NCBI GenBank assembly: GCA_040006635.1
Contig: JBDTWO010000001.1
Coordinates: 25,998 to 89,997 of the forward strand
DNA: 64,000 nt
Direction of reading: 5' to 3'
From: Chloroflexota bacterium
GTDB taxonomy: Bacteria; Chloroflexota; Anaerolineae; Anaerolineales; Villigracilaceae
Shown piece after piece: positions 6,558 to 53,831 of the stretch. Under the pieces are notes generated by a model. That model was not told where the DNA came from. It made no database searches and was given only the letters and a program-made list of their open reading frames with translations. The number at the start of each line of letters is the position of its first letter. Positions within the stretch are counted from its first letter, which is position 1. A program made the position numbers and the translations under genes.

Positions 6558-7937
6558 ATGACTACGATCTATCCACCCGAACCGTTTCGTATCAAAGCTG
6601 TTGAATCGATCCGCCTCATTCCGCGTGCAGAGCGCGAAGCCGCACTCCAAGCCGCGGGCTACAATCTCTTCTCCCTCAAAGCCGAAGACATCTTCATCGA
6701 CCTGCTCACCGACTCAGGCACCGGCGCGATGAGTGCCGAGCAATGGGCGGCGATCATGCGCGGCGATGAGTCCTATGCGGGCGCGCGCTCGTATCAGCGC
6801 CTCAAATCCGCGGTGGATGATATTTTCGGTTTCAAATATTTCGTCCCCACGCATCAGGGACGCGCCGCCGAAAACATTTTGTCCGCGTGTCTGGTCAAGG
6901 CCAATCAATGGGTGCCGAGCAACATGCACTTCGACACCACCGATGCCAACATCCGCGCGCGCGGCGGTCGCCCCGCGAACCTGGTCATCGACGAGGCTCA
7001 CGATCCCGCCAATCCGCATCCCTTCAAGGGCAATATGGATATCGCCAAACTCAAAGCCTTCATCGCCATGTACGGGCGTGAGAAAATTCCCTTCGGGATG
7101 ATCACAGTCACAAACAACGCGGGAGGCGGACAGCCCGTCTCGATGGAGAATCTCAAAGCCGTAGCGGATGTCTACCACGCCAGCGGAATCCCATTCTTCA
7201 TCGACGCGGCACGCTACGCCGAAAACTGCTTCTTCATCAAACAGCGTGAACCTGGCTACGAGTCGAAATCTGTCAAAGCGATCGCGCACGAAATGTTCGC
7301 ACTTGCGGACGGTATGTGCATGTCCGCGAAAAAAGATGCCATCGTCAACATCGGCGGCTTGCTGTGTTTGAACGATGAAAAGATTTTTGCCGACATCAAA
7401 AACGAATTGATCCTGCGCGAAGGCTTCCCCACCTACGGCGGACTCGCCGGACGCGATCTCGACGCGATGGCAGTCGGTCTCTACGAAGGCTTGGACGAAG
7501 ACTATCTCGCGTATCGCCTCAACCAAACGTTATATCTCGCCACACGCCTCAACGAAGCCGGCATTCCCACCATCCAACCCACCGGCGGACATGGGGTCTA
7601 TATCATTGCAAATGAGATTCTCCCGCATATCCCCAACTACGAATTCCCTGCCCAGTCACTGGCTGTCGAACTCTATCGCGAAGGAGCGATTCGCGGCTGT
7701 GAGATCGGCTCGGTCATGTTCGCCTGCCTCGACTCTGAAGACAACACCTGGCATTACCCCGCTCTTGAATTACTGCGTCTCGCCATCCCACGCCGCACCT
7801 ACACCCAATCCCACATGGATTATGTTGCCGATACACTCATCAAAATAAAATCGCGTGCCAATGAACTACGCGGCTACAAATTCACATATGCGCCTGAATT
7901 GCTGCGTCATTTCACTGCGCAGTTTGAGCCACTCTAA
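6558..7937 (+). CDS. tnaA: Tryptophanase (beta-eliminating lyase)
   Basis: DLLTDSG, GDESYAG, SAKKD PLP lysine, GFPTYGG. HFDTT and LRHFTA favour tryptophanase over tyrosine phenol-lyase. Start at ATG 6558 with GGAG RBS. Confidence 0.88.
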   Translation: MTTIYPPEPFRIKAVESIRLIPRAEREAALQAAGYNLFSLKAEDIFIDLLTDSGTGAMSAEQWAAIMRGDESYAGARSYQRLKSAVDDIFGFKYFVPTHQGRAAENILSACLVKANQWVPSNMHFDTTDANIRARGGRPANLVIDEAHDPANPHPFKGNMDIAKLKAFIAMYGREKIPFGMITVTNNAGGGQPVSMENLKAVADVYHASGIPFFIDAARYAENCFFIKQREPGYESKSVKAIAHEMFALADGMCMSAKKDAIVNIGGLLCLNDEKIFADIKNELILREGFPTYGGLAGRDLDAMAVGLYEGLDEDYLAYRLNQTLYLATRLNEAGIPTIQPTGGHGVYIIANEILPHIPNYEFPAQSLAVELYREGAIRGCEIGSVMFACLDSEDNTWHYPALELLRLAIPRRTYTQSHMDYVADTLIKIKSRANELRGYKFTYAPELLRHFTAQFEPL

Positions 7938-8022
7938 CCTTCGCCCAGAGCGGAGTGACGAGCGACAGCGAGGAACGCAGTCGAAGGGCAGATAACGAAG
8001 AGCGTTTTCTTCGCAATGACAT
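7938..8022. repeat. Degenerate composite REP element
   Basis: CCTTCG...GAGCGGAG...GCAGTCGAAGG plus a TCGCAATGAC half-site; related to 42724-42836. Confidence 0.6.
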
Positions 8023-9909: not shown

Positions 9910-10323
9910 CTACTTTCGTTCCGACTTCCGTATCACCAGTTTCAATCCCGACCACACTTCACTCACCGCGCAAACCTTGATATCTACAAAGCCCAACGGC
10001 AGGGCGATCTCACGGATCGTATCTTCGGTAATATCGGTTGGAACTTCCGAAGCTTTCTTGGGCCACGATATCCATATAAACCCAGTCTGCTTTAGTTCGT
10101 TGCGTAATTTTGAAAGTGTCGCATCCAAAAATAAACTTTCGGTTGTGAACACATGCACAGCCTCAATTGGAGGCACAGCCTTTGTGACTAACTTCACGCC
10201 TTCAGGTAAATCGCCAAGCCACACTTTATATTCCTGCGGCGCGTTGATCACCACCAACTTCATGGGTGCTTGGATGCCAAGCTTCTTTGCCAGCGGGGTT
10301 CCAGAATAACCAAGTTCTGCCAT
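9910..10323 (-). CDS. DUF3052-family protein
   Basis: GYSGTPLAKKLGI, IWISWPKKAS, LVDxKVCAV..WSGLK; start at ATG 10323. Confidence 0.85.
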   Translation of the reverse strand: MAELGYSGTPLAKKLGIQAPMKLVVINAPQEYKVWLGDLPEGVKLVTKAVPPIEAVHVFTTESLFLDATLSKLRNELKQTGFIWISWPKKASEVPTDITEDTIREIALPLGFVDIKVCAVSEVWSGLKLVIRKSERK

Positions 10324-10381
10324 GCATAAAATTATACAATCAAACTTGACACATGACACCTGAGACGTGATACTTACGACA

Positions 10382-12709
10382 ATGACTCGCTGGCTTGACC
10401 CTCACCCCGTAGACGCTGCGCCTCTTTCGTCCCTCAACCTGCCTCCGCTCATCGCGCAGACTCTCATCCGACGCGGGATTCTGACTCCCGACTCGGCGCA
10501 AGCTTTTCTGCACCCCGATACACTTCCATCTACACCCTTCCCCAATATTGAATCAGCCGTCGAGATCATCCACGAGGCTATCCGCAAGGACGACCTGATC
10601 TGCGTCTGGGGTGACTTCGATGTAGACGGACAAACCTCCACTGCCCTGCTCGTGCAGACTCTACGCGCGTTGGGAGCCAATGTCGTTTACTACATTCCCA
10701 TCCGCGGCAAAGAGAGTCACGGTGTTCACATCGAGAGTCTCAAACCGATCATCGACAACGATGCAAAACTCATTGTCACCTGCGACACCGGCATCACTGC
10801 CGACGAAGCCGTTGACTATTGCAACTCGCGCGGTGTGGATGTTGTCATCACCGATCATCACGATCTCGGCGAATCACTGCCCAACGCCAAAGCGATCATC
10901 AATCCGAAGTTATTACCAAGAGATCATCTACTCGCAAATCTTGCGGGCGTTGGCGTCGCATATAAACTGGCAGAGGCGTTATTAGCTTTTAGCGATCAGC
11001 AATTAGCTGTTAGCCCGCTGGCAGACGTTGATTCTCTTTTGGATCTAGTTGCACTTGGATTGGTCGCCGATGTTGCCCTGCTCAAAGGCGAAACGCGCTC
11101 CCTCGCCCAAAAAGGGATTCAAGCCTTACGCAACACCAATCGCCTAGGCTTGAAAGTCATCGCTGAACTTTCCAGTACAAATCTCGAATCGCTGACCGAA
11201 GAAACCATCGGCTTTACATTCGCGCCGCGCTTGAACGCACTCGGCAGATTAAGTGACGCCAACCCCGCGGTGGAATTACTACTGACCAATGACTCCGCCC
11301 GTGCCCGCGTGCTTGCCGCACAAATCGAAGGACTCAACGCCCAACGTAGGTTGTTGACGAGTCAAGTCACTGAAGCGGCAGAGGCGCAACTGCGCGCAAA
11401 CCCGGAATTATTGACTGAACCAGCGATTATCCTATCCCATCCCAACTGGCCCGGCGGCGTGGTGGGCATCGTAGCAAACCGCCTCGTGGACCGTTATCAC
11501 AAACCGGCTTTACTATTTACCGAATCTGAAGACGGCATTTTGCGCGGCTCAGCGCGTTCCGTTGAGGGACTTCACATCACCGAAGCGATTACCGCGAACA
11601 AAGACCTGTTACTCAATTTTGGTGGTCACCCGATGGCGGCGGGTATGTCACTACAAAAAGATAATCTCCTGTCCTTCCGCAAAGGCTTGGGACGAGCCAT
11701 TGAAAAACAACTCGGCGAAATTGTCCGCGAAGAACCGACACTGCAAATTGACGCCTGGCTCAGCCTGGACGAGATCAATCTCGAGCTAGCCAATTCGCTG
11801 GAAATGCTGGCGCCCTTCGGCGCAGGGAATCCGTCTCTGACCATGGCAACACGCGGCGTGAAGATGAAATCCGTTTCGACGATCGGGAAAGCCAAAGAAC
11901 ATCTGCGATTAAATGTCGAAGATGAAAGCGGGAATGTTCAAGGTGTTTTATGGTGGAGTGGCGCGGGTGAAACTCTGCCCGAAGACGGCAGCACCTTTGA
12001 CATTGCTTATTCCCTGCGCGCCAGTTCCTTCCGCGGGCAGAAACAAGTCACATTACAGTTTGAGGAGTTTCGAGGGAGCGAAGAAAAGCCGGTTGAGATT
12101 CAATCTGTAATGCGAGAAGTTATTGATTTACGCTTGAACACTTCAGCGTTTGAAAGTTTGAACGTTTCAATGTTAGCATGGGCAGAAGGTGCAGATAAAG
12201 CAAAGGGAAAATCACGTTATGAACTTACCAGGTCAGATGAGTTTGCAATCTACACGACTCCCCCATCACTAGCAGATTTACGTTCTGTACTTGAAATTGT
12301 AAAACCGAAGAAGGTGTATGTTTTCGGCGTTGACCCCAAATTAGAAAACGTTACGTCAGAGTCAAAATCTTCCTACCCTTATCGCATCACTGATGATTTT
12401 CTTACGCGCTTAGCTGGTATGGCAAAATATGCCATCAACCACAAAGATGGAAAAGTTTCCATCCATGAACTGGCAAGCATCACAGCTCAACGCGAGAACG
12501 CGATCCGTATTGGTTTGGAATGGCTGGCAGCTCGAGGTCATGTAACAATTTTAGGGGAGGACGATTCGGCTGTCTTATCATTAGGAAACGGCGAGATAAA
12601 TTATTACCTATTAAAAGAGCTTTATCTTGCGGTCCGTGGGATCATCCAAGAGACCGCCGCTTATCGCGCATATTTTTCACGCGCCAACATTGAATCAATT
12701 ATTGGGTGA
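10382..12709 (+). CDS. recJ: Single-stranded-DNA-specific exonuclease RecJ (DHH/DHHA1) with C-terminal extension
   Basis: GDFDVDG, TCDTG, TDHH, RGSARS and GGHPMAAG motifs. Confidence 0.95.
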   Translation: MTRWLDPHPVDAAPLSSLNLPPLIAQTLIRRGILTPDSAQAFLHPDTLPSTPFPNIESAVEIIHEAIRKDDLICVWGDFDVDGQTSTALLVQTLRALGANVVYYIPIRGKESHGVHIESLKPIIDNDAKLIVTCDTGITADEAVDYCNSRGVDVVITDHHDLGESLPNAKAIINPKLLPRDHLLANLAGVGVAYKLAEALLAFSDQQLAVSPLADVDSLLDLVALGLVADVALLKGETRSLAQKGIQALRNTNRLGLKVIAELSSTNLESLTEETIGFTFAPRLNALGRLSDANPAVELLLTNDSARARVLAAQIEGLNAQRRLLTSQVTEAAEAQLRANPELLTEPAIILSHPNWPGGVVGIVANRLVDRYHKPALLFTESEDGILRGSARSVEGLHITEAITANKDLLLNFGGHPMAAGMSLQKDNLLSFRKGLGRAIEKQLGEIVREEPTLQIDAWLSLDEINLELANSLEMLAPFGAGNPSLTMATRGVKMKSVSTIGKAKEHLRLNVEDESGNVQGVLWWSGAGETLPEDGSTFDIAYSLRASSFRGQKQVTLQFEEFRGSEEKPVEIQSVMREVIDLRLNTSAFESLNVSMLAWAEGADKAKGKSRYELTRSDEFAIYTTPPSLADLRSVLEIVKPKKVYVFGVDPKLENVTSESKSSYPYRITDDFLTRLAGMAKYAINHKDGKVSIHELASITAQRENAIRIGLEWLAARGHVTILGEDDSAVLSLGNGEINYYLLKELYLAVRGIIQETAAYRAYFSRANIESIIG

Positions 12710-45939: not shown

Positions 45940-45970
45940 AAAGGAGTGGACTTTGAAAGTCCACTCCTTT
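45940..45970. terminator. Bidirectional terminator
   Basis: AAAGGAGTGGACTTT / AAAGTCCACTCCTTT. Confidence 0.85.
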
Positions 45971-45974
45971 GCTT

Positions 45975-48215
45975 TTAGTAACGTCCTCTTTGCACCTCAA
46001 CCTCCGGATTCGCCAACTCATCCTCCCGCGCCGGGAACACCTGCACCGCGCACGCCTTGAACTCAGGGATCAACGCCTGCGGGTCGAGCGCGTCGTTCGT
46101 CAACAGGTTCGCGGCGGCTTCGGCGAAATGCCACGGGATGAACACCACACCCACCGTCGTCTTCTCGGTGACGGTGGCGCGCAAAACAATTTCGCCGCGG
46201 CGCGACGTCACTCGCACGGGCATGTTATTCGTGATGCCGTGCATCTCCGCGTCCGCGGGGTGCATCTCGGCGCGCGCTTCGGGGTACGCCTCATTCAGCG
46301 CCGAGTTGCGCGTCATCGTGCCGCCGTGCCAGTGTTCGAGCAAGCGCCCCGTCGTCAAAATGAACGGATATTCGTCATCGGCTTGCTCCATCACAGGCAC
46401 ATAATCGAGCACGTGAAATTTTCCGCGCCCGCTGGGGAACGTCTCTTTGAACAGCGTCGGCGTGCCGGGATGATTCAAATCAGGCACGGGATAGATCAAC
46501 CCGACCTTATCGATGCGCTCATACGTCACACCCGCGTAATCCATGTTGACGGACGCCATCTCACGCAGGATTTCCTCCGGCGACGCATAATCCCATTTGG
46601 ATGAAGTGCTTCGCTTCAATATAAGCTCGAGCCTGCTCGCCAAATCGCAGAGAATTTTCCAGTCTGGTCGCGACTGTCCTCGGGGCGGTTGAGCCGTCCG
46701 CACCCGTTGGACTCGCCGGTCGGTGTTGGTGAACGTCCCATCCTTTTCCGCGAACGGAGTCGCAGGCAGGAAGACATCCGCAAACGCACCAGACTCGTTG
46801 ATGAACAGATCCTGCACAACGAGAAATTCCAATTGCTGCATGTGCTTGCGCGTCTCGTTGAGATTCGGCTCAGACATCATCGGGTTCTCGCCCATGATGA
46901 ACAACGCCCGCACGCCGCCCTCATGCGCGTGACCGAGAATTTCAGTGGTGGTGAGACCGAGTTTGCGCGAGAGACCGCCGGGTTCGATATTCCAGGTCTG
47001 CTCCCATTTTTCGGCATTGGCTTCGTTATCGACGCGCATATAGCCGGGATAATGGAACGGCATCGAGCCCATGTCGCTCGCGCCCTGCACGTTGTTCTGT
47101 CCGCGCAACGGATTCAGTCCCGTGCCATCGCGCCCGATGTGACCCGTGAGGAACGCCAAATGGATGAGCGCCATCGCGCTGGCGGTTCCATGCGAAAGTT
47201 GCGAGATGCCCATGCCCCAATAAATTGCACCATTCTTCGCCGTGGCATACATGCGTGCCGCTTTGCGAATATCTTCAGCAGGGACGCCCGAAAGTTCTTC
47301 AGCATATTCGGGCGTGAACTTCTCCAGCGACTCGACGAAATCTTGAAAACCTTCCGTGCGCTTCGCGACAAAATCGTTGTTGACCAATCTCTCTTTCACA
47401 ATCACATGCGCCATCGCGCTGAAGACCGGCACATTCGTCCCCGGCTTGAGCGGCAGCCACATCTCGGCGAAGTCAACCAAATCAATACGGCGCGGGTCAA
47501 TGACAATCATCTTCGCACCGTACTTCTCCACCGCTTCCTTCATCTGCAGCGCGATAATGGGATGATTCTCGCCCGTGTTCGACCCTGTAACAATAAACAC
47601 ATCATTTTGGATCACTTGCGAAGCCGTGTTACTCATCGCCGAAGAGCCAAGTGCTTTTTGAAGTGCAACCACCGAACCCGCGTGACAGAGACGCGTGCAA
47701 TGGTCTATGTTATTCGTTCTGAATAATGTTCGCCACATCTTCTGCAACAGATAATTATCTTCGTTCGTCGCCTTGGCGCAACAGTAGACCGCCATCGCGT
47801 CTGAGCCGTCACGTTGATAGATACGGGTGAGATTATCAGCAGTGATGTTGAGCGCTGTCTCCCAATCGGTTTCGACCCAGTCCCAAGGGGAGAGTGACGA
47901 GTGATCAGTCATCAGTGAGCGGTTGCCAAGTTCAGGCGCATCACTTCGACTCTTCCACTGTTCACTGTTCACTGCCAACTGATTACTCTCCCCCAACAAA
48001 TATCTTCTTACAAGCGGCGTCGTCACACGCTTGGGATGATAGATAAAGTCATATCCAAACCGTCCCTTTACACACAAGTTGCCGTGATTGACCGGCGAAT
48101 CAAACGGCGACGTCACCTTGAAAATAAAATCGTCTTTGACGTGTAACTGTAAATTACATCCAACGCCGCAATAGGGACAGGTGGTGGTAACAACACGGTC
48201 TGATTTAATAACCAT
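45975..48215 (-). CDS. fdhF: Formate dehydrogenase alpha subunit, Cys-ligand paralog
   Basis: CPYCGVGC, CVKG, DHCTRLCH, PLRGQNNVQG, P.FK..AV. Confidence 0.9.
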   Translation of the reverse strand: MVIKSDRVVTTTCPYCGVGCNLQLHVKDDFIFKVTSPFDSPVNHGNLCVKGRFGYDFIYHPKRVTTPLVRRYLLGESNQLAVNSEQWKSRSDAPELGNRSLMTDHSSLSPWDWVETDWETALNITADNLTRIYQRDGSDAMAVYCCAKATNEDNYLLQKMWRTLFRTNNIDHCTRLCHAGSVVALQKALGSSAMSNTASQVIQNDVFIVTGSNTGENHPIIALQMKEAVEKYGAKMIVIDPRRIDLVDFAEMWLPLKPGTNVPVFSAMAHVIVKERLVNNDFVAKRTEGFQDFVESLEKFTPEYAEELSGVPAEDIRKAARMYATAKNGAIYWGMGISQLSHGTASAMALIHLAFLTGHIGRDGTGLNPLRGQNNVQGASDMGSMPFHYPGYMRVDNEANAEKWEQTWNIEPGGLSRKLGLTTTEILGHAHEGGVRALFIMGENPMMSEPNLNETRKHMQQLEFLVVQDLFINESGAFADVFLPATPFAEKDGTFTNTDRRVQRVRTAQPPRGQSRPDWKILCDLASRLELILKRSTSSKWDYASPEEILREMASVNMDYAGVTYERIDKVGLIYPVPDLNHPGTPTLFKETFPSGRGKFHVLDYVPVMEQADDEYPFILTTGRLLEHWHGGTMTRNSALNEAYPEARAEMHPADAEMHGITNNMPVRVTSRRGEIVLRATVTEKTTVGVVFIPWHFAEAAANLLTNDALDPQALIPEFKACAVQVFPAREDELANPEVEVQRGRY

Positions 48216-48228
48216 AAAGCAAGTCTCC

Positions 48229-48742
48229 TGACCTATCCCCCTGCCCCCTTTCCTTGAAGGAAAGGGGGAGTCTGAGGGGCAGGCAATCTCCCCTTCCCTT
48301 TGAGGGAAGGGGTCGGGGGTTAGGTGCCTTTACACTCGTCCACAATCCTCTGCAAAACACTCTTCAAATTCTTGATAACATCTTCATTCGTAAAACGAAT
48401 AATCCGAAAACCAAGCGCAATCAAATATTCTTCGCGTTCGGCATCGTATTCTTTTTGCAATTCATGAATTCCTCCATCCAATTCAACGATCAACTCGTGT
48501 TGATGGCAATAAAAATCAGGAAAATAACCATGAACAACCTGCTGTCTTCGAAAATGAAGACCATTCAGCTTATTGCCTTTCAATTCTTTCCATAATTTCT
48601 TTTCGGCAGGCGTCATTACACGGCGCAACTCTTTCGCACGCTCGAGCATTTCATCAGAAACTTTCTGTCCTCTAACAATATTCTTAATCGGCATAAGTTT
48701 TTCTCCCCTTCCCTTTCAGGGAAGGGGTCGGGGGATAGGTCA
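48229..48742. mobile_element. DUF559 endonuclease gene bounded by REP-like ends
   Basis: 12-bp terminal inverted repeat TGACCTATCCCC / GGGGATAGGTCA; direct copies of CTCCCCTTCCCTTT..GGGAAGGGGTCGGGGG on both sides of the gene. Confidence 0.65.
48320..48694 (-). CDS. DUF559 (Vsr-like) endonuclease
   Basis: LRRVMTPAEKKLW, FRRQQ, DFYC, ELDGGIH, GFRIIRFTN. Confidence 0.92.
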   Translation of the reverse strand: MPIKNIVRGQKVSDEMLERAKELRRVMTPAEKKLWKELKGNKLNGLHFRRQQVVHGYFPDFYCHQHELIVELDGGIHELQKEYDAEREEYLIALGFRIIRFTNEDVIKNLKSVLQRIVDECKGT

Positions 48743-48792
48743 AAACAAAAACGCCCCACGCATTAGCCTGGGGCGTTCATGCGCTGAATTAA

Positions 48793-50886
48793 TTATACTC
48801 TCTCGACTTTAACCGCGCTCACTTTATATTCTGGTATCTTCGCTACTGGATCAACGGCATCGTTGGTCAATGCGTTGGTTGGGACTTCGGCAAAGTGGAA
48901 GTTCATGAACACCATGCCGCGCGGAAGTTTATCCGTGAGGCTGGCTTTGCCGGTCGCTTCGCCGCGGCGGGAAGTGACGCGGATCATTTCACCAGTTGCA
49001 ATCCCAAGTCTGACGCCATCTTCGTCATTGATCTGGATCTCGCCCTCCGGCACGATCCAATCCAACCCAGCCGAGCGGCGACTCATCGTCCCGCCGTGCC
49101 AATGCTGAAGGATACGTCCCGTATTCAACATGAATGGATACTCTTCATCAATCGCTTCCATGGGTTCACGGAATGTGAGCGGTGTAAACTTGCCGAGTCC
49201 GCGGGTAAATTTTTCTTTATGCAGGATCGGTGTGCCCGGATGGTCCGCTGTCGGGCAGGGCCATTGGATTCCGCCATGCTCAAGCTTCTTGTAACTGAGT
49301 CCAGCCATGGATGGAGTCAGCGAAGCGATTTCATCCCAAACGGCAGAGGCACCAGTGTAGTTCCAATTTGTTATGGAGTGAACAACGTCAGTTGAGTTTT
49401 CATCCGAAGTGGTCTGACTCAAACATTGACCCAGATCGCAAATGATATCGAGATCGCGGCGCGCCTCACCACGAATGGGCAAAGCCGTGCGCACACGCTG
49501 CACGCGTCGCTCGGTGTTTGTGAACGTGCCTTCTTTTTCCGCGAAGCTCACACCGGGCAAAACCACATGCGCGAGCTGCGCGGTCTCGTTCAGGAAAATA
49601 TCCTGCGAAACCAAAAACTCGATTTCATTGAGCGCCTCTTTCACATGATTGGTGTTGGGGTCGGAGAGAATCGGATTCTCCCCCAGAATATACAACGCCT
49701 TCACGCGTCCATCGAGAATGCCGTTCATCAACTCAGTGATCGTGAGCCCCGGCTTCGCAGGAATCTTCACCACGGTTTGCCACGCATTCTCAAATTTCGT
49801 GCGCACGGCTTCATCAACAACAGATTGATACCCCGTGAGCACATTCGGAAGCCCGCCCACATCGCACGCGCCCTGCACATTGTTCTGCCCGCGCAGCGGA
49901 TTGACGCCCGAACCGGGCTTGCCAAAATTACCGGTGAGCAATGCGAGATTCGCCAACGCCTGGACGTTATCCACGCCATGTGACGACTGCGTGATACCCA
50001 TCGCCCAGAAGATGGCTGCGCTTCCCGCCCGACCGTAAAGCTGCGCGGCTTCGCTGATCATTTCCGCAGGGACGCCGGTTACGTCCTCACCCCATTGCGG
50101 TGTGCAATCCTTGACAGCTTCTTTGAGGGCGTCAAAGTTTTCAGTTCTTGTTGTAATGAATTCTTGTTTTACCAACCTTTGTTCAATGATGACATGCGCC
50201 ATCGCATTGAGCAACGCCACATCCGTGCCCGAACGCGGACGGATATGAATCGTCGCAAAATCAGCCAGTTCAATTTCACGCGGGTCAATCAGGATCAACT
50301 TCGCGCCATGCTGTCGAATCGCCTTCTTCATCTCAAGGCTGATAACCGGATGTGCCTCAGTAGTGTTACTGCCTGTGACCAACAATACATCGGCAAGATG
50401 AATATCTGCGATGGAATTGGTCATCGCGCCTGAACCCAGTGTCGTTGCCAGACCGGCAACGGAGCTGGAGTGTCAGAGCCGCGCGCAGTGATCGACGTTA
50501 TTTGTACCGATCAGTCCGCGCGCCACCTTTTGCAGCAGATAATTTTCCTCGTTCGTGCATTTGGCTGAGACGAGGAATCCAATCGAGTCGGGTCCATATT
50601 TCTCGCGGATCTCTAGCAGGCGTTCAGAAACATGACTCATTGCTTCGTCCCAAGTTGCTGGAACAAGTTCACCATCCTTGCGCATCAAAGGCTGGGTCAG
50701 GCGATCCTTCGAATGGATAAAGTCATATCCGAAGCGACCTTTCACGCACAAGTTGCCGTGATTGGCAGGCGAATTGAACGGCGATGTGGACTTGTACACA
50801 AAATCATCTTTGATATGCAAGTTCAGTGTACAGCCCACGCCACAGTATGGACAGGTAGTAGTTACGATTCGGTCAGGATTAATCAT
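48793..50886 (-). CDS. fdhF: Selenocysteine-containing formate dehydrogenase alpha subunit (one gene; the ORF track splits it at the Sec TGA)
   Basis: NVDHCARL-TGA(50475-50473)-HSSSVAGL stays in frame with the downstream ORF; SECIS hairpin follows. Confidence 0.93.
50443..50461 (-). promoter_or_regulatory. Bacterial SECIS element
   Basis: CGTTGCC-GGTCT-GGCAACG stem-loop beginning after an 11-nt spacer 3' of the UGA; resembles the E. coli fdhF SECIS. Confidence 0.88.
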
Positions 50887-50898
50887 CTATTTCACCTT

Positions 50899-51237
50899 CT
50901 AGCGAAGAGCACTTAGGAGTCTCTTGCTAATCAGAAATCCTTCAAGCGAGCAAACATACATGATAGTTAAGCCAGCGATTATTTCATAAGAAAGGCGTTT
51001 ATCCATTTCATGGATTGGAGGGATCAGGAATAAATAAAGGGGCAAAAGTAATATCACAATTCTACAAATTGAAACTACTTTTGGAAGAGCCTGAGTTAAC
51101 TTTTGCTTTTCTTTAATAGACAAAGATTCTGTCCGTTTTTTATTTACCATGAAGTACACTACAACTCCATAGATAAATATGAACCCAACTACACCTAAAC
51201 TTATTTTGAACCAAATGGAAGAAAAGTAATCCATCAA
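50899..51237 (-). CDS. AT-rich small membrane protein inserted in the fdh operon
   Basis: Three hydrophobic segments; AT-rich; abuts both neighbouring genes. Confidence 0.65.
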
Positions 51238-51250
51238 CTATCCTACTCAG

Positions 51251-51943
51251 TTATTTATCTTTTCTGCGTTTACGTCCGGTATTCATCACACTTATTTCTT
51301 CGGGCTTCATCCCCTGCTCCAACTGGAATTGGCGTTTCGGTTTCAACGCGCCGGTGGGACAAACTCCCACGCATTGCCCGCACAACACACACGTCGTCTC
51401 AGGAATAGTCTTATCGAAGAACGTGCCAATCTGCGTCTCAAATCCGCGCCCTTCGAAGTTGATCGCATACGTATATTGCGCATCGTCCGCGCAGACTTGC
51501 ACACAGCGCCAGCACAACAAACACTTCGAGTAATCACGGATAAACATCGGGTTGTCGTCTTTAATTTCCGACTCGCGTCGCTCCGCATCCGGGAAGCGTT
51601 CCGCGTTTGCGCCGTATTCATCCATCATCGTCAAAATTTCGGGTGCATCGGACAAATCCATCGTGGAGGCAAGCATCTCAAGAATCGTCTTGCGCGCGCG
51701 AACAACTTTTTCGCTCTTGGTTTGCACCTTCATATTATTTGCGGCTTCAACGATACACGCTGGCTGAAGCACGCGCATCCCCTCGACTTCGACGACACAC
51801 ATACGGCATAATCCATTTGCGGTTGTCGCTTCGTGGAAACAGATCGTAGGAATGTCTACGCCGTTTTCGCGTGCGGCATCCAAAAGCGTTTTGCCTTCTT
51901 CTACCGTTATTTCCTTGCCATCCATTTGAAAAGTGGTTGTCAT
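51251..51943 (-). CDS. Fe-S subunit (2Fe-2S + 2x4Fe-4S), NuoG/HydA N-terminal-like
   Basis: [36 protein letters not shown]. Confidence 0.92.
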
Positions 51944-51945
51944 GA

Positions 51946-53682
51946 TTAACCTTCAACCTTTGACGTTTGACCCTTCGATGAACTCAGGGCAGCGCCTTCG
52001 ACGAAAAGTTCTGGCCACAACTTCATCGCGGACAATACTGCACTCGCCGCCGTCTGACCTAAGCCGCATAAACTCGCATCCGTCATCGTCCAGCCGACAT
52101 CTTGCAAGCGGACAAAGTCACCATCAACGATCTTGCCGGAGGCTACACGATCTAAAATTTCTTTCTGGCGTTGCGTCCCCATCTGGCAGGGATAACATTT
52201 ACCGCACGATTCATGCGCAAAGAAGTGACCGAGACTCTTGAGCACCTGGCGCATATCACGCGTCTCATCAAAGACCATCACCACGCCCGAGCCAAGCGGA
52301 AGCCCAACTCCGCGCAGGTCTTCAAACGTCATTTTGACATCGAGATGTTCAGTCGTTGCGAACGCGCCTGCCGCACCACCAAATAACACAGACTGAAGTT
52401 TCTTGCCGTTCGCGACTCCGCCTGCCATTTCAAGCACTTCACGCAACGTCACACCAAACGGGACTTCGTACACACCAGTCTTTACAACATCACCCGAAAC
52501 GCAGAACAGTTTCGGACCCGGCGATTTCTCGGTGCCGATCTTTCTAAATTCAGCCGAACCTTTCGCAACGATCAATGGAACATTGCAAAGTGTCTCAACA
52601 TTGTTGATGACGGTCGGTTTGCCAAAGACGCCGTAAGTGGTTGGGAACGGCGGTTTCACACGCGGGAAGCCACGCTTGCCTTCGATGGATTCAAATAAAG
52701 CAGTCTCTTCACCGCAGATGTACGCCCCCGCCCCAACGCGGACTTCAATATCAAATCTTTCGTTCAAATATCCCGCCGCGCGCGCTTCGGTCAAAGCATT
52801 CTCCAACACCGGGACAATATACGGATATTCCGCGCGGATATAAATATAGCCTTTGCTTGCGCCAATCGCATACGCGGCGATGCACATGCCTTCAATCGTG
52901 CGATGCGGATCATCGAGCAAAAGAATGCGATCCTTGAACGTGCCCGGCTCAGACTCATCCGCGTTGCAAATAACGTACTTCTGATCGGCTTCGGCTTTGG
53001 CGGCACCGTCCCATTTGATGCCGGTCGGGAATGCCGCACCGCCGCGTCCAACCAGACCGGATGCTTTTATCTCGTTCACGATCTCTTCCGGTTTCATGGT
53101 CATGGCTTTCTTCAACGCAGCGTATTCACCGTATTTTGAAAGCGGCGTAGTGCCATTGCCGCAATTCGCGGTCAATAAACGGATTGAGCCATCCACTAAT
53201 GAAGGCGGACGACCCAATTCATAGGTATTCTTTTCGAGGTTGATGTTAGTCTCAGCTTCATCACCGACCAATGCCACAGGCGCATGTTCACACAGCCCCA
53301 GGCAAGGACTCGACTCGATGGTGAGAGACAGGTCCGGCTTCGTCTGATGAAATCCCCTTGCGGGACCGGGTTTCAGTCCATGATGTTCACAGAGATGATT
53401 GAGAACGCCATCCGCATCTTTGAGGGCACACGCCACATCCGTACAGACTCGGATCACACGTCTGGCTGTCGGCTTATCATAGAAGAGGGTATAGAACTCA
53501 ATGACACCATGCACATCGGCGAGCGGAACGTGCAGTGTTTTGGCAATTTCAGTTGCAACCGGCTCAGAAACCCAGCCATAAATTTTTTGAGCCGCGTGCA
53601 AGGCTGGTAACAACCCTGAGCGGCCCAAAGGAATATACGGTTCGATTGCAGTTCGGAGAGAGGCTGTTTCGGTGAGTGTCAT
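51946..53682 (-). CDS. NuoE-NuoF fusion (NADH/FMN diaphorase module of an NAD-linked FDH)
   Basis: NuoE-like CTDVAC / CLGLC; [37 protein letters not shown]. Confidence 0.92.
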
Positions 53683-53831
53683 ACTTTGCTCCAATCGAAA
53701 CAAAGTATAGACCGAAACAAATGGTCTGACAAGTCAAAATCGTCAGAGAGGGATGAAAGTCAAAAAATAAAGGTGCTTTTCTACGGGATAAATCATACAA
53801 GCTTTGCACAAACCCTGCCAAGAATAAAGTA

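Follow-up and report, generated by a model that had tools for sequence, protein, structure and literature searches.

We describe a formate dehydrogenase gene cluster on the minus strand of a 64,000-nt stretch of DNA (hereafter the window, in whose coordinates all positions are given) from a genome of the family Villigracilaceae (Anaerolineales) that is 93% complete. In the order of transcription, and all in the same orientation, the cluster comprises a fused nuoE-nuoF gene (nuoEF), a hoxU-like iron-sulfur (Fe-S) gene, a gene for a selenocysteine (Sec)-containing catalytic alpha subunit, fdhA(Sec), a gene of the DUF559 family, and a gene for a second alpha subunit with cysteine (Cys) at the equivalent position, fdhA(Cys) (Table 1). 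The five elements named in an earlier reading of this DNA (the original prediction), namely the NuoEF fusion, the Fe-S subunit, both FdhA proteins and a selenocysteine insertion sequence (SECIS), are thus all confirmed, co-oriented as had been claimed. The cluster probably encodes a cytoplasmic, NAD+-linked and non-bifurcating Mo/W formate dehydrogenase of the FdsABG/FoDH1 type, in which two alternative alpha subunits would be served by one HoxU/NuoEF diaphorase.

The catalytic subunits and the selenocysteine codon

Both alpha subunits score above the curated cut-off (666 bits) of TIGR01591, the equivalog model for formate dehydrogenase alpha subunits, with 867 bits for the Sec copy and 766 bits for the Cys copy, and they are 47% identical to each other. 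A maximum-likelihood tree of 93 alphas places them in two clades with 100% support, one consisting entirely of Cys-type proteins (n=54) and the other mostly of Sec-type proteins (n=39). Both copies have the N-terminal [4Fe-4S] motif with its lysine (CPYCGVGC...NLCVKGRFG; Pfam PF04879), U138 of the Sec copy aligns with C177 of the Cys copy at the metal-ligand position, and the Sec/Cys-His pair (RLUHSSS or RLCHAGS) and the arginine motif NPLRGQNNVQG are conserved in every displayed member of both clades. We take this pair and the arginine to be the equivalents of U140-H141 and R333 in Escherichia coli FdhH. In genomes carrying both alphas, dN/dS is 0.07-0.12 for each of them, indicating purifying selection, and these ratios, coupled with the conserved catalytic residues, suggest that both proteins work as formate dehydrogenases. 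Among solved structures, FdhA(Cys) is closest to the alpha subunit of FoDH1 (7e5z_A), the F420-linked formate dehydrogenase, FdhF of the hydrogen-dependent CO2 reductase (HDCR), FdsA (6tg9_A) and E. coli FdhH.

Two features set the Cys protein apart. One is a hypervariable in-frame insert of ~38 aa after the Fe4S4 domain (residues ~70-110; window 47885-48000). All 54 members of the Cys clade bear an insert at this place. It is 35-50 aa long in Villigracilaceae, against ~18 aa in other families, and even close species differ in its sequence. The other is a conserved C-terminal extension of ~20 aa (window 45975-46040), which ends in RGRY in FdhA(Cys) and in RGRY or RGRW in most of its clade. The basal Cys-clade members L042 and L111 lack this extension, as do all Sec-clade alphas. 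An insert resembling that of FdhA(Cys), RRYLLEGK...WDWVETDWDTAL, is found in one Sec-type alpha, which carries the label Anaerolinea thermophila (L106).

Folding of the sequence that follows the UGA of fdhA(Sec) gives a hairpin, GUUGCC-GGUCU-GGCAAC, whose stem begins 12 nt 3' of this codon. When the same stretch was taken from all fetched Sec-type relatives, which yielded 26 distinct sequences, the 6-bp stem was found to be paired in every one of them, with double compensatory changes at three stem positions (for example C-G, G-C, A-U and U-A at one of these), and the loop GGUCU was invariant (26/26). No comparable hairpin is present in the equivalent stretch of any Cys-clade gene, which bears out the claim that only the Sec copy has a SECIS. 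Since an Rfam scan of the window returned no family at its gathering score, SECIS families included, the element, which has the canonical form, is established by folding and covariation. The genes for Sec synthesis and insertion are found in the same genome, all of them above their cut-offs (selB, 328 bits; tRNA-Sec, 63.6 bits; selA, 508 bits; selD, 349 bits). The selD gene (G000:C177:3578-4510) is itself read through one TGA and so encodes a selenoprotein SelD.

In four members of the Sec clade (L046, L047, L089 and L114), the position of U138 is occupied by Cys and the SECIS has decayed to a remnant without the GGUCU loop. These genes look like Sec-to-Cys conversions of the kind described by Zhang et al. 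2006, and such replacement, together with the loss of selenoprotein genes, is typical of the dynamics of FdhA (PMC1794560). In a database search with the Sec alpha, the top 120 matches (P0007-P0126) are gene calls of 542-568 aa that contain only the part after the TGA, or 78-80% of the query. Because public gene calls of the Sec copy are all cut short at the UGA (542-543 aa), automated metabolic reconstructions of these organisms can be expected to miss or mislabel the Sec enzyme.

Table 1. Genes and sequence elements of the formate dehydrogenase cluster, in order of transcription (window coordinates).
Feature	Position	Strand	Basis or detail
Two sigma-70-like promoter matches 5' of nuoEF (TTGGCA-18-TATGAT, TTGTCA-17-TATACT)	53704..53821	-	Putative promoters; consensus scan only, 10/12 each
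NuoE-NuoF fusion, HoxF/FoDH1-beta-like NAD(H)-FMN diaphorase subunit (P0001)	51946..53703	-	Pfam, PDB matches
HoxU-like Fe-S subunit, 230 aa; NuoG N-terminal module, 2Fe-2S and 4Fe-4S clusters (P0002)	51251..51943	-	Pfam, NCBIfam, PDB
112-aa hydrophobic open reading frame in AT-rich insert between hoxU and fdhA(Sec)	50899..51237	-	
fdhA(Sec), 697-aa Mo/W-bis-pyranopterin guanine dinucleotide (bisPGD) formate dehydrogenase catalytic subunit	48793..50886	-	Sec138 = TGA 50473-50475, sole in-frame TGA
SECIS hairpin	50443..50461	-	Stem 50455-50460/50444-50449; loop GGUCU 50450-50454
Intrinsic-terminator-like hairpin and U-run, directly 3' of fdhA(Sec) stop	about 48740..48787	-	Fold and conservation
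DUF559 gene (Vsr-like endonuclease fold) between the two alphas	48320..48694	-	Pfam PF04480, 2e-37
fdhA(Cys), 746-aa formate dehydrogenase catalytic subunit (P0006)	45975..48215	-	Cys177 at 47685-47687
Bidirectional terminator-like hairpin at cluster end, common to a convergent TIR-TPR gene	45940..45970		14-bp stem, T-runs on both strands

The NuoEF/HoxU module and its catalytic partners

The NuoE-NuoF fusion protein, which probably starts at the ATG at 53682 (relatives align from residue 5-8), comprises the Pfam domains PF01257 (2Fe-2S_thioredx), PF01512 (Complex1_51K), PF10531 (SLBB) and PF10589 (NADH_4Fe-4S), and it is matched over its full length by the beta subunit of FoDH1, a tungsten formate dehydrogenase (7e5z_B), and by HoxF (5xf9_A), both of which are NuoE-NuoF fusions as well. 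The HoxU-like protein has the Pfam domains Fer2_4, Fer4_7 and Fer4_Nqo3, and matches the NCBIfam models for HoxU and for the FeFe-hydrogenase A6 N-terminus. Its PDB matches are HoxU and the Fe-S regions at the N-termini of HydA, FdsA and FoDH1 alpha. The subunit set of the NAD+-dependent formate dehydrogenases is therefore present, in the form of NuoF-, NuoE- and NuoG-N-terminal-like modules plus an alpha subunit (7e5z_B, 6tg9_B, 6vw7_B, 7e5z_A, 6tg9_A).

The original prediction had called this enzyme possibly bifurcating. A flavin-based electron-bifurcating formate dehydrogenase, akin to HylABC-FdhF2 or HydABC, would couple NAD+ and ferredoxin, and it could be argued for from the presence of bifurcating HydB chains among the structures that the NuoF core matches with the highest scores and from the resemblance of HoxU to the N-terminus of HydA. 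In the structures of HydABC, the length of HydB beyond the NuoF core holds additional Fe-S domains. However, the matching HydB chains, 584-630 aa long, have their NuoF core at about 95-550, whereas in our fusion protein the core reaches residue 568 of 585 and no Fer4 Pfam domain is found. Because the protein is without HydB's extra ferredoxin-type domain beyond the NuoF core, and its full-length matches are the non-bifurcating FoDH1 beta and HoxF, bifurcation is very unlikely.

In the non-bifurcating enzyme that we favor, the beta subunit would be the NuoE-NuoF fusion, carrying flavin mononucleotide (FMN), the NAD(H) site, a 2Fe-2S and a 4Fe-4S cluster. The alpha subunit would be split, with its N-terminal Fe-S part forming the separate HoxU-like protein and its catalytic part being either FdhA(Sec) or FdhA(Cys), both of which would dock on the same HoxU/NuoEF diaphorase. 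Electrons would then pass from formate through Mo/W-bisPGD, the 4Fe-4S cluster of FdhA, the HoxU clusters and the FMN of NuoF to NAD+, or in the reverse direction. The Sec enzyme would be made only when selenium, SelA, SelB, SelD and tRNA-Sec permit decoding of UGA138 via the SECIS, and it is expected to be the faster of the two forms. From sequence, then, we infer the physical sharing of the module, its NAD specificity, the higher activity of the Sec form and any effect of selenium on the ratio of the two enzymes.

For the sharing of the module, the evidence is comparative. The locus was fetched from about 90 genomes, and the five proteins were mapped onto each. The close relatives by Cys alpha are metagenome-assembled genomes labelled Anaerolineales, Candidatus Villigracilis saccharophilus and Candidatus Villigracilaceae. 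Members of the Villigracilaceae are abundant filaments in wastewater plants. In activated sludge, the group has been described as filamentous heterotrophs that are facultatively anaerobic (PMC10746286). The tandem order nuoEF-hoxU-fdhA(Sec)-fdhA(Cys) was found in at least nine species of the same genus and, in a second genus of the family, in one species (G319, locus L055), and about twenty other members of the family have nuoEF-hoxU-fdhA(Cys) only. Beyond Villigracilaceae, nuoEF-hoxU followed by a Cys-clade alpha occurs in at least seven other families of Anaerolineales and in a further family of the class, f65. Orthologs of nuoEF lie upstream of every Cys-clade fdhA at the mapped loci, and several Cys-only genomes have a hoxU gene that runs into the start of the alpha gene or stops 0-70 nt short of it. 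Since this gene order recurs across families, the Cys-clade protein appears to be the regular catalytic partner of the diaphorase. Relatives in the Sec clade are found directly 3' of hoxU (L044) or have a HoxU-like part as their own N-terminus, in open frames of 900-940 aa, so that each type of alpha has independent evidence of its own for a HoxU-type module. The only other NuoE/F/G homologs in the genome are a single complex-I-like set on contig C58, where NuoE, NuoF and NuoG adjoin one another in that order. Comparative gene order thus strongly indicates that both alphas use the same NuoEF/HoxU module, and the claim that they share one NAD-linked NuoEF/Fe-S module becomes likely.

It could be objected that the Cys protein is not interchangeable with the Sec protein, because it has another electron partner or substrate, which would leave the Sec enzyme as the sole partner of NuoEF/HoxU in this organism. 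The hypervariable insert and the clade-specific C-terminal tail would be in keeping with such a specialization, as would the terminator and the DUF559 gene that separate fdhA(Cys) from the module. Yet orthologs of the Cys protein are the only alpha in the nuoEF-hoxU-fdhA operons of many genomes, some of them with overlapping stop and start codons. The protein itself exceeds the cut-off for formate dehydrogenase alphas and keeps the Cys-His pair and the arginine, no other soluble NuoEF or HycB-like partner adjoins its gene, and the genome holds no other NuoEFG-type partner beyond the set on contig C58. A separate role for the Cys protein is therefore quite improbable.

Several observations weigh against a single NAD-linked module shared by two alternative alphas. 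Neither the metal (Mo or W) nor the nucleotide specificity can be read from sequence. In two genomes of family f65 (L110, 3665-12042; L112, 3869-12341), fdhA(Sec) lies in a conserved block, after genes for pyruvate:ferredoxin oxidoreductase and a dihydroorotate dehydrogenase-like protein and a small open reading frame, and before a gene for a FocA-type formate/nitrite transporter, with no NuoEF/HoxU beside it, while the same genomes hold nuoEF-hoxU-fdhA(Cys) at another place. These copies stand alone, and a Sec-type alpha can evidently act off-operon, in trans or with another partner. At our locus, the Sec gene has a strong, conserved terminator on its 3' side, and the promoter scan recognized nothing 5' of the Cys gene. 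In addition, the foreign inserts at the junctions, an AT-rich open reading frame and the DUF559 gene, could disturb co-expression.

The hairpin 3' of fdhA(Sec) has a dG of -29.9 kcal/mol (z = -6.3), and 0/200 shuffles fold as well. The same GCCCCG...CGGGGC hairpin followed by a T-run is also present after the Sec gene in L032, L033, L034, L036, L048 and L049. It is conserved in most tandem genomes, and some others (L035, L060 and L079) have a different Sec-Cys intergenic sequence without this hairpin. A promoter consensus scan gave no promoter-like site 5' of fdhA(Cys), and a search among relatives for a conserved regulatory element 5' of the Cys gene found only a ribosome-binding site, GGAGGTG..ATG, in common. 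With a terminator in front of it and no promoter-like site, fdhA(Cys) would rely for its expression on read-through or on a promoter missed by the scan. A translational selenium switch holds only in the trivial sense that decoding of the UGA needs selenium.

A more elaborate possibility is a selenium-sensing polarity switch, in which the UGA/SECIS and the terminator would act as an attenuator and the progress of ribosomes on fdhA(Sec) would set the transcription of fdhA(Cys). This would make sense of a terminator hairpin that begins 8 nt past the Sec stop and is kept in most tandem genomes, and of the lack of a separate promoter-like site 5' of the Cys gene. It also has a partial precedent in Treponema primitia, where selenium controls fdhF transcript levels, with transcripts of fdhF(Sec) truncated near the UGA/SECIS under scarcity and the levels of fdhF(Cys) altered (PMC3892789, PMC6288185). 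In its simplest form, however, the switch has the wrong sign, as the lack of selenium would lead to less read-through and less Cys enzyme. Moreover, L035, L060 and L079 do without the hairpin, only the ribosome-binding site of the Cys gene is conserved, and the spacer tolerates inserts (DUF559, and a 1-kb open reading frame in L055) without apparent harm. Such a switch is accordingly an unlikely one.

History of the two alphas and of their junctions

The Sec copies of Villigracilaceae form one tight monophyletic group in the Sec clade and always occupy the same operon position. Their nearest relatives, at 60-64% identity, are the hoxU-linked alpha of L044, from another family, and the stand-alone Sec alphas of f65. 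The presence of the Sec gene, mapped on the tree of the Cys genes, requires six changes, at least four of which are forced by well-supported branches. Given this monophyly of the Sec copies, their history is most simply read as a single gain and several losses: in an ancestor of Villigracilaceae, the Sec gene would have been inserted once, 3' of hoxU and 5' of the Cys gene already there, and it would have been lost at least four times. The heads of the genes lend this small independent support. The Cys gene of tandem genomes begins with a longer, remodelled head (MVAELxLDxKRVxxD..), and in ancestrally Cys-only genomes it starts with MIKPDRI.., like the Sec gene when this is the first after hoxU. 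The Cys-only loci L028, L030 and L102, which are nested among the tandem genomes, keep the extended head, as expected if they had lost a Sec gene.

None of the sampled loci has kept the Sec gene and lost the Cys gene. Given that the Cys gene is always kept while the Sec gene was inserted and repeatedly lost, the Cys enzyme is, on this comparative evidence, the ancestral and constant one and the Sec enzyme an optional add-on. The idea that the Cys copy is a backup for times without selenium is thereby reversed in its direction. Since selB is kept in Cys-only genomes, the loss of the Sec alpha is not simply a loss of the Sec trait. The closest relative by Cys alpha, the closed genome G017, has no Sec alpha, and its selB match (G017:C1:3202760-3203845) covers model positions 2-341 only and carries a TAG stop, a state that may reflect decay of the Sec trait after the loss of the Sec formate dehydrogenase.

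Two homologous genes that are adjacent and co-oriented, and whose products are more alike in their first 60 residues (0.67) than in the remainder, bring to mind a recent tandem duplication at this locus, after which one copy would have changed from Sec to Cys or from Cys to Sec. But the proteins share only 47% identity and fall into separate, fully supported clades, each of which spans several families, and the 93-alpha tree rejects this origin, to which we give virtually no credence. On the question of duplication versus acquisition, which the original prediction had left to phylogeny, the answer is thus not a duplicated pair; the alphas are ancient paralogs from two deep clades.

The likeness of the heads bears on a further point. 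Over residues 1-60, the identity of the Sec copies from Villigracilaceae is 0.67 with Cys-clade proteins and 0.53 with their own clade, with the relation reversed in every other 60-residue window, as if the Sec copy had acquired its Fe4S4 domain from the Cys gene next to it. A tree of the 62 N-terminal columns still places these copies with the Sec clade, approximately unbiased (AU) tests on the same columns reject neither placement (p 0.25 and 0.13), and the head MI.PDR.V is also present in Sec genes from outside the family. We entertain, at low probability, the idea that the Sec alpha and its own terminator form a portable cassette that is swapped in and out at the hoxU-fdhA junction by recombination via the highly similar gene head (ATGATCAAACCCGACCGAAT.., MIKPDRIV..CPYCGVGC), with the terminator-bearing spacer tuning Cys expression to the passage of ribosomes over the UGA. 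If this were true, a lineage could gain or drop the selenium-dependent version of the enzyme with the rest of the operon untouched.

The junctions have also received other DNA. Around the DUF559 gene (48229-48742 of the window with its surroundings) lie palindromic CCCCTTCCCT..AGGGAAGGGG hairpins, at 48245 and 48290 on one side and at 48705 on the other, and the three copies of this hairpin in the genome are all at this gene. In relatives (L031, L032, L034, L049, L052, L055, L078 and L104), the DUF559 gene lies at the hoxU-fdhA(Cys), the hoxU-fdhA(Sec) or the Sec-Cys junction, always co-oriented and flanked by tandem hairpins of the same kind, with up to 4+3 copies (L032). It looks like a small mobile unit that prefers the junctions of this operon. 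A tRNA-Gln(ttg) called by ARAGORN at 48267-48342 overlaps the CCCCTTCCCT/AGGGAAGGGG hairpins and the end of the DUF559 open reading frame, has no Rfam tRNA match at the gathering score, and is probably a false positive.

The spacer between hoxU and fdhA(Sec) is a 365-nt AT-rich insert (50887-51251; GC content 0.35, versus 0.50-0.55 in the flanking genes) that holds two weak promoter-like matches in the consensus scan. The product of its 112-aa open reading frame has three hydrophobic stretches and no Pfam or NCBIfam match, and no copy of the insert was found elsewhere in the genome or in the operon of any relative, where this spacer measures 40-150 nt. Other cargo is seen in relatives: L055 (genus g21) has an open reading frame of ~1 kb between the Sec and Cys alphas (6912-8001), and L028 (G017) has a gene for a 586-aa DUF4153 multi-pass membrane protein between nuoEF and hoxU (10231-11991). 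A gap of like size (~1.8 kb) is present between nuoEF and hoxU in L049, L052 and L084.

Relation to known formate dehydrogenases

The original prediction held that Sec/Cys pairs usually occur at separate loci. This is what other Anaerolineae show, but a pair within a single cluster was already known from the HDCR of Acetobacterium woodii, whose genes are arranged as fdhF1 (Cys), hycB1, fdhF2 (Sec), hycB2, fdhD, hycB3 and hydA2 (PMC6288185). As is likely for our cluster, a Cys- and a Sec-type FdhF serve one redox partner, and for A. woodii a differential production of the two that depends on selenium has been assumed (PMC6288185). In contrast to our cluster, the partner in A. woodii is an [FeFe] hydrogenase, where here it would be an NAD-linked NuoEF/HoxU diaphorase; a separate HycB adaptor goes with each FdhF, where here no alpha has a dedicated one; and FdhF1 and FdhF2 are 80% identical, a recent pair, where the two alphas described here, at 47%, are old paralogs. 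T. primitia likewise has Sec and Cys isoenzymes, fdhF(Sec) and fdhF(Cys), in one genome, although the two genes are 14 genes apart and in the context of an HDCR-like hydrogenase, and it is in that organism that their regulation has been measured.

With regard to the module itself, FoDH1 of Methylorubrum extorquens (Fdh1AB; 7e5z) and FdsABG of Rhodobacter capsulatus and Cupriavidus necator (6tg9, 6vw7) have the same NuoF-like FMN subunit, NuoE-like 2Fe-2S part and NuoG-like N-terminus, and the likeness extends to FoDH1 beta being a NuoE-NuoF fusion that aligns to ours over its full length. Unlike our cluster, in which the alpha is split and exists in two versions, these enzymes have the HoxU-like part fused to a single, Cys-type alpha. 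The combination of a NuoE-NuoF fusion with a HoxU of ~240 aa is also that of HoxFU in the NAD-reducing [NiFe] hydrogenases (5xf9), which serves a hydrogenase dimer, whereas its counterpart here belongs to a formate dehydrogenase.

The cluster is therefore a new example of a known strategy, that of isoenzymes for life with and without selenium, and not a new kind of system. What is particular to it is the HoxFU-type partner, the union of ancient paralogs by insertion, and a comparative series in which the Cys gene is fixed and the Sec gene dispensable. Our findings extend the strategy of Sec/Cys formate dehydrogenase isoenzymes to Chloroflexota and to an NAD-linked diaphorase of the HoxFU type. 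Since the series is unusually clean, with a Sec gene that was inserted once and lost at least four times, a Cys gene that was never lost and selB kept in Cys-only genomes, these bacteria emerge as a good natural experiment on the costs and benefits of selenocysteine.

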